Assembly (NCBI GenBank): GCA_016210855.1
Contig: JACQTJ010000098.1
Span: forward strand, 1-57,283
Direction of reading: 5' to 3'
DNA from: Acidobacteriota bacterium
Lineage (GTDB): Bacteria > Acidobacteriota > Terriglobia > Acidiferrales > 2-02-FULL-67-57
Length of the DNA stretch: 57,283 nucleotides
The position numbers and the translations under genes are program-made. Positions 18,367 through 20,651 of the stretch are shown one piece after another. Under the pieces are notes generated by a model, which worked only from the letters and a program-made list of their open reading frames with translations, was not told the DNA's origin and did not search any database. Numbering within the stretch: the first letter of the stretch is position 1; each line of letters begins with the position of its first letter.

Positions 18367-18459
18367 GTCATTCTGAGCCCGCAGGGCGAAGAATCTCAAT
18401 CTGAAGTATTAGGCACCGTTTGAGATCCTTCGCCCCGAAGCTTCGGGGCTCAGGATGAC
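18367..18459. repeat. compound palindromic (REP-like) element: two inverted copies of GTCATYCTGAGCCC-hairpin-GGGCGAAGRATCTC
   Basis: Left unit 18367..18397 on the plus strand. Right unit 18459..18422 on the minus strand (GTCATCCTGAGCCCCGAAGCTTCGGGGCGAAGGATCTC). Each unit has its own GCCC/GGGC hairpin, and a 24-nt spacer separates them. Confidence 0.8.
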
Positions 18460-20651
18460 AAGCCGGGGGAATGGGCGAAATAGAGGCGGAAGGGCTCGAA
18501 GGCCTGGCGGAGCAGCTCCAGGTATTTTTCTCGGTCGTAGCTCGAGAAGCCGTTGAGCAGGGTAAAGGGCCGGGCGCGCTCGGTGGGCAGAGCGGCGTCA
18601 GCCTGGGTGATGACGTATTCGATGGCTTCACCCGGGCGCAGCTGGACCCCGCAGGCTTCGAGCGCCTGCGCCGCCACCGCCACCAGGCTGGCTTTCTGGT
18701 AATCGCCTGGCGCCTGGGTCAGGCGCTTGCGGATGATGAGCTCCTCCCAGCTCACTTTCCCCGCCCGCAGCCGCTCCTCGAAGCGGGCCAGGACTTCAGC
18801 GGCCTCGGCGAGCTTCTGCCGGTAGGAGTTGGCGTCGTGGGCCTCGGCGAACAGCCGGAGCACTTCCTCCTGCATGCGGGCAACCAGCGGAGGCGCGTCG
18901 TGCCGGCGCACCTCGAGGCCGCGCACTTTGATGCGGTTGCTTCCGGCAAACACCCCGAAGTAGCGGTTGGGCACGGACACGGCGGCGTTCTGTCGGGAGG
19001 GCAGGAAGACGATGTACTTGTACACGCCTTCCAGGGCTACGGGCAGGTCGGTGGCGGCCTCGATGGCCCGGGCCAGCTCTTCGTAGTCCTGGCGGGTGGC
19101 CCCCGGCTTCTCGACCCAGAGCGAATCCACGATGGCGTGCAGCAGGCGGAAGCCGGCCCGCTCGCTGACTTCCTTCGCCACCAGCAGCTTTTCCCGCCCG
19201 AAAGCGTTGATGGCTTCGTGGGCCTCGATGCGGCCGAAGCGAGCGTTCTTGTAGCCGAGGTAGCCGAAACAGGTGACCAGCAGCCACTTCAAGGCGTTCT
19301 GGCGGTCGTCGTAGCGGCGGCGCTCGCTTTCCTCTCTCGCCTCGTGCATGAGTTGCTTGTAGCGGGCGCGCTTTTCGATGATGGGCGCGACCGTCTGCGG
19401 CACCAGGCCCCGGCGCCGTCGGCAAATCCCGTAGCCGATCTCCGGCACCCGGGCCGGGCAGCCGCAACGGCAGTTGACGGTCTCGGGGGAGACGTTGAAG
19501 CGCGCCATGATGCTGGGGAACATGGAGGCGAAGTCGAGTTCCCCCACGTTTTCGTGGAAGCCCAGGATGGGCTTGAAGACCAGGCCGCCGCGGTCGGTGA
19601 GCAGCAGCTGGCGAGCGGTTTTGAACTCCTCCGGCTCGCGCTTCTGCCAGGGGATAAGGATGTGCTGGCGGCAGGCGAGGTCGAGCTGCATAGAGGTGAT
19701 GCCAGTGCCGGTCGAGGTGCGAGCCATGTACTGCAGGGGGAGCTTGGTCAAGCGCGAGAGCTCGAACAGCCCCTCCAGGTTGGTCTCGCCCACGGCGAAA
19801 GAATTTTTGCGGTCAATGTGCAGCCGGCCGAACAGGGTGGTCGAGCTGTCCTTGAAGACAATGCGCCCGTAGGAGAAATACGACCGGGCCCGCTTGTGGT
19901 GGGCGGCGCAGGCGGGGTCGCGGTTCAGGGGCAGCGGACAGTCCAGGCGCTCGGCTGCCTGGAGCAGGCGCGGCAGCAGGAACGAGTCGCCCCAGTCGGT
20001 GAGCAGGATATCGGGGTCGTCCTGGCGGAGCCGCCGGGCGAGGGCCGCCAGCAGTTCCCGCGGGTCGTCTTCGGTGAGCACTTCGACGCGGTCTTCCACG
20101 CACACTTCAAGCCCGCCGCGGTGGCCGTGCTGGGGAGTGATGGATTCGCCCTCGAGCCGCCACTCCATCACCGTGAGCGGCGGCAGTTCGTACTGCGTGG
20201 CCCAGGGGTCGTCCTCGACCCTGAGCGCGCGCACCCGGTCGGCCTCGTCCACCTCGAGTGCGCAGCGGGCCAGCGGGAAGACGCCTTTCTCGTAGGCATA
20301 GAGCGCGGGCAAGGAAATGTCGCAGTTGAACAGCTCTGCCCGCGGTGCCTGGCGGTGCACCCAGCGGGCCACGGCCGCAAACTGCACCGGGCGCCGGACG
20401 CCCACCTCGAGGACCGTCTGCCAGACGCCGCTCCAGAGGTCCTGTCGCTCCACCCAGTCGAGCCGCACCGGGAACTCGGCGGCCAGCCGGGGGGTGAGCT
20501 GGGCGATCTTGTCGAGCGGGCCGCCCACGTAGAAGCAGGGCGTGAAGTCCGTGTCCACGAGGCGCCGGCGGCGCCCGGCGGCCTCAATCGTCCACAGCAC
20601 CATCCCCTCGGGGCTCGGGTAAAGATCGAGCAGCCAGGTTTCGACCCGCAT
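18450..20651 (-). CDS. family-B DNA polymerase, archaeal-PolB-like, exonuclease motifs degenerate (733 aa)
   Basis: Motif A ELDFASMFPSI. Motif B region QNALKWLLVTCFGYLGYKNARF. Motif C region LLHAIVDSLWV. N-terminus MRVETWLLDLYPSPEG resembles the archaeal PolB N-terminus. Start set at the ATG at 20651, which has a GGAGG SD. Confidence 0.85.
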   Translation of the reverse strand: MRVETWLLDLYPSPEGMVLWTIEAAGRRRRLVDTDFTPCFYVGGPLDKIAQLTPRLAAEFPVRLDWVERQDLWSGVWQTVLEVGVRRPVQFAAVARWVHRQAPRAELFNCDISLPALYAYEKGVFPLARCALEVDEADRVRALRVEDDPWATQYELPPLTVMEWRLEGESITPQHGHRGGLEVCVEDRVEVLTEDDPRELLAALARRLRQDDPDILLTDWGDSFLLPRLLQAAERLDCPLPLNRDPACAAHHKRARSYFSYGRIVFKDSSTTLFGRLHIDRKNSFAVGETNLEGLFELSRLTKLPLQYMARTSTGTGITSMQLDLACRQHILIPWQKREPEEFKTARQLLLTDRGGLVFKPILGFHENVGELDFASMFPSIMARFNVSPETVNCRCGCPARVPEIGYGICRRRRGLVPQTVAPIIEKRARYKQLMHEAREESERRRYDDRQNALKWLLVTCFGYLGYKNARFGRIEAHEAINAFGREKLLVAKEVSERAGFRLLHAIVDSLWVEKPGATRQDYEELARAIEAATDLPVALEGVYKYIVFLPSRQNAAVSVPNRYFGVFAGSNRIKVRGLEVRRHDAPPLVARMQEEVLRLFAEAHDANSYRQKLAEAAEVLARFEERLRAGKVSWEELIIRKRLTQAPGDYQKASLVAVAAQALEACGVQLRPGEAIEYVITQADAALPTERARPFTLLNGFSSYDREKYLELLRQAFEPFRLYFAHSPGLSS

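Follow-up and report, generated by a model that had tools for sequence, protein, structure and literature searches.

Does a B-family DNA polymerase that has lost its proofreading motifs, together with one of the two aspartates of its motif C, still polymerise DNA, and with which partners would it do so? This question is raised by an open reading frame for 733 amino acids (N-terminus MRVETW) on contig JACQTJ010000098.1 of an Acidobacteriota bacterium (GenBank assembly GCA_016210855.1), the whole stretch of 57,283 nucleotides that was analysed being hereafter called the window. An earlier note had read the protein from the DNA letters as a polymerase devoid of proofreading, and hence error-prone or specialised, or alternatively as a fully inactivated structural PolB. 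Two points had escaped it, namely that the protein belongs to a bacterial family already described, and that its gene is part of a three-gene operon, iRadA-PPB2-PolB2. Judged by its motifs, its partner genes, its profile scores and its archaeal best relatives, the protein is assigned to the bacterial PolB2 (group G2). Its odd-looking traits are published hallmarks of this group, of which the window gene is an ordinary member. We consider it very probable that PolB2 is the translesion subunit of a mutasome, with a decayed proofreading domain, an intact polymerase site and a LexA-repressed operon.

A PolB fold with altered exonuclease and polymerase motifs

The PolB2 gene (Table 1) is preceded by a GGAGG ribosome-binding site located 6 nucleotides 5' of its ATG. 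Its product has a single Pfam match, the polymerase domain PF00136 (residues 316-695, E = 5.5e-37), and the profile check that the earlier note had advised for the PolB exonuclease domain gave no Pfam match. The top NCBIfam models, NF004416 (404 bits) and NF004418 (399 bits), both named 'type B DNA-directed DNA polymerase', were matched over the full length. Among solved structures, phmmer found the archaeal PolBs to be the closest, with the Pyrococcus abyssi PolB on top (8e-54). The AlphaFold model, built from an alignment of 24 PolB2 relatives sharing 50-84% identity with the query (alignment A1), has a mean predicted local distance difference test score (pLDDT) of 86 and a predicted template modelling score (pTM) of 0.83. 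It displays a full-length PolB fold comprising palm, fingers, thumb, N-terminal and exonuclease-like domains, which Foldseek matched over the full length to the archaeal PolBs of Pyrobaculum (5mdn) and KOD (4k8z), with a template modelling (TM) score of ~0.72 and E ~5e-41.

Table 1. Positions in the window of the operon genes, the promoter elements and the PolB2 motifs
Feature	Positions	Strand	Basis
Sigma-70-type promoter, TTGACT, 17-nt spacer, TATTAT	21540..21568	minus	promoter scan
Direct-repeat operator TTCGCTTTTTATTCGCC, putative LexA (SOS) box	21546..21562	minus	fills the promoter spacer, conserved
iRadA, RadA/Rad51-like, 239 aa	20804..21523	minus	weak Pfam Rad51 match, profile search, alignment A2
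PPB2, small helical partner, 107 aa, starts MGRTVATF	20584..20907	minus	alignment A3, open reading frame starts, single-sequence model
PolB2 (G2 group), B-family DNA polymerase, 733 aa	18450..20651	minus	Pfam, NCBIfam, AlphaFold, Foldseek
Exo I remnant LTVMEWRLE, aa 159-167; Asp to Glu163, Glu to Arg165	20151..20177	minus	A1, hhalign, model
Exo II remnant DWGDSFLLPRL, aa 219-229; Asn to Trp220, catalytic Asp to Leu225	19965..19997	minus	phmmer, A1, hhalign
LHIDRKNSF, aa 277-285; D280-R281 is the D(K/R) motif	19797..19823	minus	phmmer, A1, hhalign
Motif A ELDFASMFPSI, aa 371-381; metal-ligand Asp373 invariant	19509..19541	minus	phmmer, A1, hhalign
Four cysteines C394, C396, C398, C410 (NCRCGCPARVPEIGYGIC, aa 393-410)	19422..19475	minus	invariant in 24/24 relatives, A1
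Motif B KWLLVTCFGYLGY, aa 455-467; Lys455 kept, consensus NS to VT	19251..19289	minus	phmmer, A1, hhalign
Motif C LLHAIVDSLWV, aa 503-513; first Asp to Ile507, D509 invariant	19113..19145	minus	phmmer, A1, hhalign

To locate the motifs, PolB2 was aligned with Pyrococcus PolB by phmmer, and the 24-member family profile was aligned by hhalign with Pfu Pol, the sequence of which was matched to PDB 3a2f over its full length and the residue numbering of which was checked. In the Exo I region the hhalign alignment was split and ambiguous, so that we relied instead on family conservation and on the order of strands in the AlphaFold model, the latter of which backs the placement of the Exo I remnant proposed by the earlier note. 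D141 and E143 of Pfu Pol thereby correspond to E163 and R165 of PolB2, and the position of E163 varies across the 24 relatives (E, Q, R, H or A), while R165 is nearly invariant. The Exo II remnant was found by both alignments where it had been read, with W220 in place of N210 of Pfu Pol and L225 in place of the catalytic D215, a position occupied by a leucine or an isoleucine in all 24 relatives. The absence of the YxxxD sequence of Exo III, previously noticed between Exo II and residue 298, extends to the entire protein, Tyr311 of Pfu Pol falling within a 26-residue deletion.

Two of the previous statements on this region need to be adjusted. Between Exo II and the position of Exo III, PolB2 is indeed shorter than the Pyrococcus enzyme, by ~45 rather than about 50 residues (55 residues, as compared to 100 in Pfu Pol). 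In addition, the view that all three Exo motifs are degenerate holds for Exo I, Exo II and the tyrosine of Exo III, but an aspartate, D280 (GRLHID-RKNSF), stands in the column of the Exo III Asp315 of Pfu Pol in both alignments and is invariant in the 24 relatives; PolB2 may therefore have kept the carboxylate of Exo III in its sequence. D280 and R281 form the D(K/R) motif, the second residue of which varies in remoter relatives. This motif is group-specific (Kazlauskas 2020, PMC7544198), and it has been proposed to contact the N-terminal arm of PPB2 (PMC11791011). About 15 residues before the Exo I remnant, we also observed an invariant aspartate, Asp147 (DDPW, residues 147-148, ~20208..20213 on the minus strand), which belongs to a conserved D(D/S/N)xW motif.

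The polymerase motifs were found as they had been described. Motif A is intact, with D373 corresponding to Asp405 of Pfu Pol; motif B keeps its lysine (K455, corresponding to K487) and has its NS replaced by VT; and in motif C the D541-T-D543 of Pfu Pol has become I507-V-D509, so that only the second aspartate is left, as in the IID of Sulfolobus islandicus. D373, D509 and K455 are invariant across the 24 relatives, and the first position of motif C is an isoleucine or a leucine in all of them. Because they are conserved family-wide, the degenerate motifs are fixed and selected traits of the family, and result neither from chance nor from the decay of a single gene.

The family in question is large. 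A protein search retrieved more than 5,700 B-family relatives at E ≤ 1e-5, the best 120 of which are 49-84% identical to PolB2 and originate mostly from metagenome-assembled genomes of Terriglobia/Acidobacteriota and Nitrospirota. It is abundant in soil Acidobacteriota and Nitrospirota, and a scan of the GTDB species genomes with the family alignment yielded 80 loci from Acidobacteriota, Nitrospirota, Chloroflexota, Ignavibacteria, Thermodesulfobacteriota and others. In the classification of Kazlauskas 2020 (PMC7544198), the bacterial PolB2 acquired from archaea make up group G2, and both groups B2 and G2 have an unconserved Exo I, no Exo III and a single conserved aspartate in motif C. The acquisition has been attributed to one transfer of PolB2 from archaea to bacteria (Timinskas 2025, PMC11791011), and a 2026 survey in Nucleic Acids Research (PMC12926913) distinguishes three groups of PolB in bacteria, G2/PolB2 being one of them, with an inactivated exonuclease domain in all three.

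The iRadA-PPB2-PolB2 operon

PolB2 is preceded on the same strand by two genes, in the order iRadA-PPB2-PolB2. The first one likely starts at the ATG at 21523, behind a GAGGTGG ribosome-binding site. Its product is a RadA/Rad51 homologue that lacks both the N-terminal domain and the ATPase residues, the Walker A position being degenerate (GHPESSRLS) and the Walker A lysine not being conserved in the iRadA family (alignment A2). The iRadA family profile matched the core domains of archaeal RadA, Rad51 and DMC1 (best E = 1.4e-8), and no bacterial RecA was listed among its matches. The second gene, PPB2, has the ribosome-binding site GGGAGGTG upstream of it. MGRT is the start of its open reading frame in 70 of the 72 loci, and residues M1-G2-R3-T4 and the ALRxEDQ core are invariant or nearly so (alignment A3). 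A single-sequence model predicted, with low confidence (pLDDT 65), three helices (residues 5-20, 28-46 and 56-94), so that PPB2 appears to be small and made up of three helices, with the MGRT residues in an N-terminal arm.

Using tblastn with the window proteins, both iRadA and PPB2 were found ahead of PolB2, and in this order, in 62 of the 80 related loci, and the upstream flank is incomplete in many of the other 18. The PolB2 family appears always to travel with iRadA and PPB2. In the literature, the bacterial gene order iRadA-PPB2-PolB2 is fixed, PPB2 is proposed to touch the D(K/R) motif with its MGRT arm, and a PolB2:iRadA:PPB2 complex of 1:1:3 is predicted (PMC11791011).

The comparison with the bacterial G2 operons (Kazlauskas 2020; Timinskas 2025; the 2026 survey) revealed no essential difference. 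The window and the described operons share the gene order, the MGRT arm, the degenerate ATPase site of iRadA and the absence of its N-terminal domain, as well as a PolB2 that lacks the Exo I and Exo II carboxylates and the Exo III tyrosine, has a single aspartate in motif C and carries the D(K/R) motif. What is particular to this lineage is that there is no adjacent lexA but a probable LexA operator in the promoter, that no clamp motif can be recognised, and that the genes overlap by 104 and 68 nucleotides.

The 104-nucleotide overlap, that of the iRadA 3' end with PPB2 (20804..20907), occurs only in the window and in its closest relative, locus L001 (80% identity between the two PolB2). The PPB2 3' end overlaps the PolB2 start by 68 nucleotides (20584..20651), a length that reaches 98 nucleotides in most acidobacterial loci and is of 26 nucleotides in Nitrospira loci. 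These overlaps are unusually long. The tails involved show no conservation between phyla and hence are probably disordered by-products, with a possible translational coupling. We also noticed that iRadA ends with a beta-clamp-binding motif (QPRLF, QLRLF or QLNMF) in the loci of Chloroflexota and in one locus of Terriglobia, L063 (the loci with such C-termini being L056, L060, L063, L068, L069, L071, L072 and L078). Such motifs are carried by a fraction of the family members, and shuttle between iRadA and PolB2 (PMC11791011).

The promoter of the operon and its direct repeat

The promoter of the operon matches the sigma-70 consensus at 10 of 12 positions, and 0.2 such sites were expected in shuffled sequences. 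Its spacer is filled by a direct repeat, and nowhere else in the window is the full conserved 17-mer TTCGCYTTTTRTTCGCC matched. The looser pattern TTCGC-N6-TTCGC has a second match in the window (37313..37328), and with one mismatch allowed it is not enriched (8 matches versus 6.7 expected); only the full conserved 17-mer is informative, not the looser pattern.

The promoter and the repeat occur together upstream of iRadA in 33 acidobacterial-type loci, the PolB2 of which are 44-80% identical to that of the window (the 17-mer itself stands upstream of iRadA in L001-L034, L041, L063 and L066). Scanning metagenomes for the 17-mer, we obtained 120 sites (L081-L200), the first downstream genes of which were classed by comparison with a small reference panel. 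At the classified sites, these genes encode a DinB-superfamily protein (7 sites), iRadA (7), a Y-family polymerase (5), LexA (3), RecA (2), UDG (1) and DnaB (1), and Pfam confirmed representatives of the classes other than iRadA. LexA operators are classically recognised by their occurrence in front of lexA itself, as well as of recA and of genes for translesion polymerases. Since the 17-mer is found before lexA, recA and genes for Y-family polymerases, the repeat lying between the -35 and -10 boxes is probably an SOS (LexA) operator. Written as (G/T)TTC-N7-(G/A)TTC, it resembles the alphaproteobacterial GTTCN7GTTC box, and no acidobacterial SOS box or LexA motif was found in the searchable literature.

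From these associations we lean, by a narrow preference, towards the proposal that TTCGC-N6-TTCGC is the LexA operator of the Acidobacteriota, and that the PolB2 operon is a core member of the SOS regulon along with lexA, recA, and the Y-family polymerase and DinB-superfamily genes. If this is true, PolB2 would rank among the main mutagenic polymerases that damage induces in a dominant soil phylum. The apparent SOS-type wiring through a conserved operator offers a testable handle on damage-induced mutagenesis in the poorly studied Acidobacteriota, since, to our knowledge, no bacterial PolB2 has yet been characterised biochemically.

A link to lexA appears in other phyla as well. In 21 of the 80 loci (Nitrospirota, Thermodesulfobacteriota), the gene immediately upstream of iRadA is lexA or encodes an S24 peptidase; some of these loci have palindromes of the GAAC-N4-GTTC type in the promoter, and lexA has been reported to be enriched near bacterial PolB2 operons (PMC11791011). 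In Nitrospira loci (L035, L037-L039, L042, L044-L046, L055 and L065, at ~4.0-5.0 kb), the gene upstream of iRadA encodes an XRE-type helix-turn-helix domain fused to an S24 peptidase (starting with MTAKQFRQARVRLGYTQ), and is itself preceded by a GTAACATTTTGTGAC palindrome. Judging from its sequence, this XRE-S24 protein appears to be a LexA-like regulator whose DNA-binding domain is non-canonical. In four loci (L011 at ~4990..5060, L015, L021 and L028), two inverted copies of the promoter plus operator stand back-to-back upstream of iRadA; no credible minus-strand open reading frame that could be a divergent gene was found at the second copy in L011, the locus that was checked.

Proposed function of PolB2, rival explanations and neighbouring genes

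What the analysis shows is the motifs and how they are conserved in the family, the PolB fold, the conserved operon, and the operator together with the genes that it accompanies. Catalytic activity, an extender role and a complex are inferred from archaeal experiments and published models, and so, from the operator, is LexA control; we propose the following scenario. PolB2 would be the catalytic subunit of a bacterial PolB2 'mutasome', encoded by the last gene of an archaea-derived operon. Its proofreading domain would be decayed and inactive, and its two-metal polymerase site, made up of Asp373 (motif A) and Asp509 (motif C), would be intact. By analogy with the Sulfolobus Dpo2 enzyme, it would most likely perform translesion synthesis by extending primer termini that are mismatched or that pair with a lesion. 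PolB2 would probably operate in a complex with one iRadA and a trimer of PPB2, the MGRT arm of which would insert near the active site and contact D280-R281. A smaller proposal, for which our preference is as narrow as for the SOS operator, is that the aspartate of Exo III was preserved and recruited for the docking of this arm. Finally, the acidobacterial operon would probably be repressed by LexA via the direct repeat, and, given the position of this operator between the -35 and -10 boxes, it would be induced by DNA damage.

The enzyme on which the analogy is based, Dpo2, is a robust polymerase with an IID motif C and no detectable exonuclease (Feng 2022, PMC8764526; see also PMC11791011). 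It inserts nucleotides accurately on undamaged DNA, and is specialised in the extension of mismatched or lesion-paired primer ends (PMC8764526). Because Dpo2 is active without detectable exonuclease despite its IID, and in view of the invariance of D373, D509 and K455, we favour the first reading of the earlier note, that of a polymerase without proofreading, while the term 'error-prone' has to be nuanced in view of the accurate insertion by Dpo2. The Dpo2 enzymes of S. islandicus and S. solfataricus belong to the same family as the window protein, have an isoleucine at the first position of motif C (IID versus IVD) and have lost the Exo motifs. They also have iRadA and PPB2 partner genes and are damage-inducible, a likeness to the window operon insofar as the latter would be inducible too. 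They differ from the window PolB2 in being archaeal and thermophilic, with a more reduced exonuclease domain and a regulation through Orc1-2 instead of LexA, and in having been characterised experimentally, the window protein being known from its sequence.

Several points weigh against the proposed scenario. The catalytic activity is extrapolated from distantly related crenarchaeal enzymes to the bacterial PolB2, and the loss of the first aspartate of motif C, along with the replacement of the motif B asparagine by a valine, could lower catalysis. The NCBIfam scores lie under the curated cut-offs (404 versus 516 bits), the heteropentamer is a published prediction only, and no beta-clamp-binding motif is recognisable in the tail of the window iRadA or at the C-terminus of PolB2 (FRLYFAHSPGLSS). 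As for the regulation, there is no lexA gene in the window, and the downstream gene at about three quarters of the 120 metagenome sites was unmatched by the small reference panel.

These points have to be set against those of the rival explanations. Reportedly, the original view of archaeal PolB2, put forward by Rogozin in 2008, was of the scaffold type, and the alternative of the earlier note, an inactivated structural PolB like archaeal PolB2, follows the same line. It names the right family, and a catalytically dead pseudo-polymerase retained as a structural or DNA-binding scaffold would account for the loss of the first motif C aspartate, the replacement of the motif B NS and the breakage of the Exo motifs, in a family whose bacterial members are known from sequence alone. 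We nevertheless regard it as unlikely, since the invariance of D373, D509 and the motif B lysine, observed among relatives that are 50-84% identical, would serve no purpose in a scaffold. Furthermore, this view of archaeal PolB2 was overturned by the experiments on Dpo2 (PMC8764526), and the primer-independent PolBs that lack the same aspartate are active as well (PMC7544198). It is extremely unlikely that we are dealing with an SOS polymerase of the E. coli Pol II type (polB), or a replicative PolB, in which intact proofreading motifs were merely misaligned. The protein is indeed a bacterial B-family polymerase that is probably damage-inducible like Pol II, but Pfam finds no exonuclease domain in it, and neither the hhalign profile alignment nor the family conservation (A1) shows a conserved set of DEDD carboxylates, so that the intact DEDDy proofreading site of Pol II (G1) is lacking. 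The NCBIfam models of Pol II score only 37-80 bits on it, as compared to 404 bits for NF004416, Pol II is not among its best 60 solved relatives in the phmmer search, and Pol II works as a single subunit, without iRadA or PPB2 partners (PMC11791011).

The horizontal acquisition of the whole family, and a break of synteny with L001 directly upstream of the operon, might instead suggest the insertion of the polymerase of a mobile element or prophage, such as a casposon, a pipolin or a protein-primed PolB. The surroundings make this very unlikely, because the GC content of the operon is that of the surrounding window (0.665-0.679), and because Pfam identified the flanking genes as housekeeping ones, namely a phosphoribosyltransferase-domain gene and a tRNA pseudouridine synthase (truA-like) gene. 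Moreover, no gene for an integrase, Cas1 or a terminal protein occurs among the neighbouring open reading frames that were scanned, and the same three-gene operon recurs on chromosomes across several phyla, some of the contigs being 3-4 Mb long.

The translesion mutasome that we propose for PolB2 can be compared with better-known systems. Like the E. coli Pol V mutasome (UmuD'2C-RecA) and ImuA-ImuB-DnaE2, which are SOS-controlled multi-subunit translesion machines, it would bring together a polymerase, a partner with the RecA fold and an accessory protein of small size. The catalytic subunits of these two machines belong to families Y and C, their partners are not homologous to PPB2, and the RecA of Pol V is an active recombinase. 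Pol zeta (Rev3) is, as PolB2 would be by analogy, a multi-subunit B-family translesion extender with an inactivated exonuclease domain; it differs by its full DTD motif C, its other accessory subunits and the separate origin of its exonuclease inactivation. E. coli Pol II (PolB, G1) shares with PolB2 its bacterial and B-family nature, has the SOS induction and the extender behaviour that are proposed for PolB2, and differs by its active DEDDy proofreading domain, its single subunit and its C-terminal QLGLF clamp motif.

One further feature of the PolB2 protein is the group of four cysteines listed in Table 1, which may form a metal-binding (zinc) site. In the stretch that hhalign aligned with this region, the Pfu PolB has two cysteines only (C428 and C442).

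Next to the operon, a divergent gene on the plus strand (21633..22472) encodes a 279-residue DnaQ-like DEDDh exonuclease with an extra N-terminal region of 85 residues, and shares with the operon a common intergenic region of 110 bp. The possibility of a conserved association, in which this exonuclease would proofread in trans for PolB2, was rejected, since none of the 80 related loci has the gene, not even the closest one, L001; its adjacency to the PolB2 operon is probably incidental for the same reason. A possible plus-strand promoter (21517..21544) lies just upstream of the operator. On the other side of the operon, the comparison of the window (16798..18399, minus strand) with L001 (8325..12562) showed that synteny, which breaks directly upstream of the promoter, is kept downstream over the phosphoribosyltransferase gene, the truA-like gene and two further genes.

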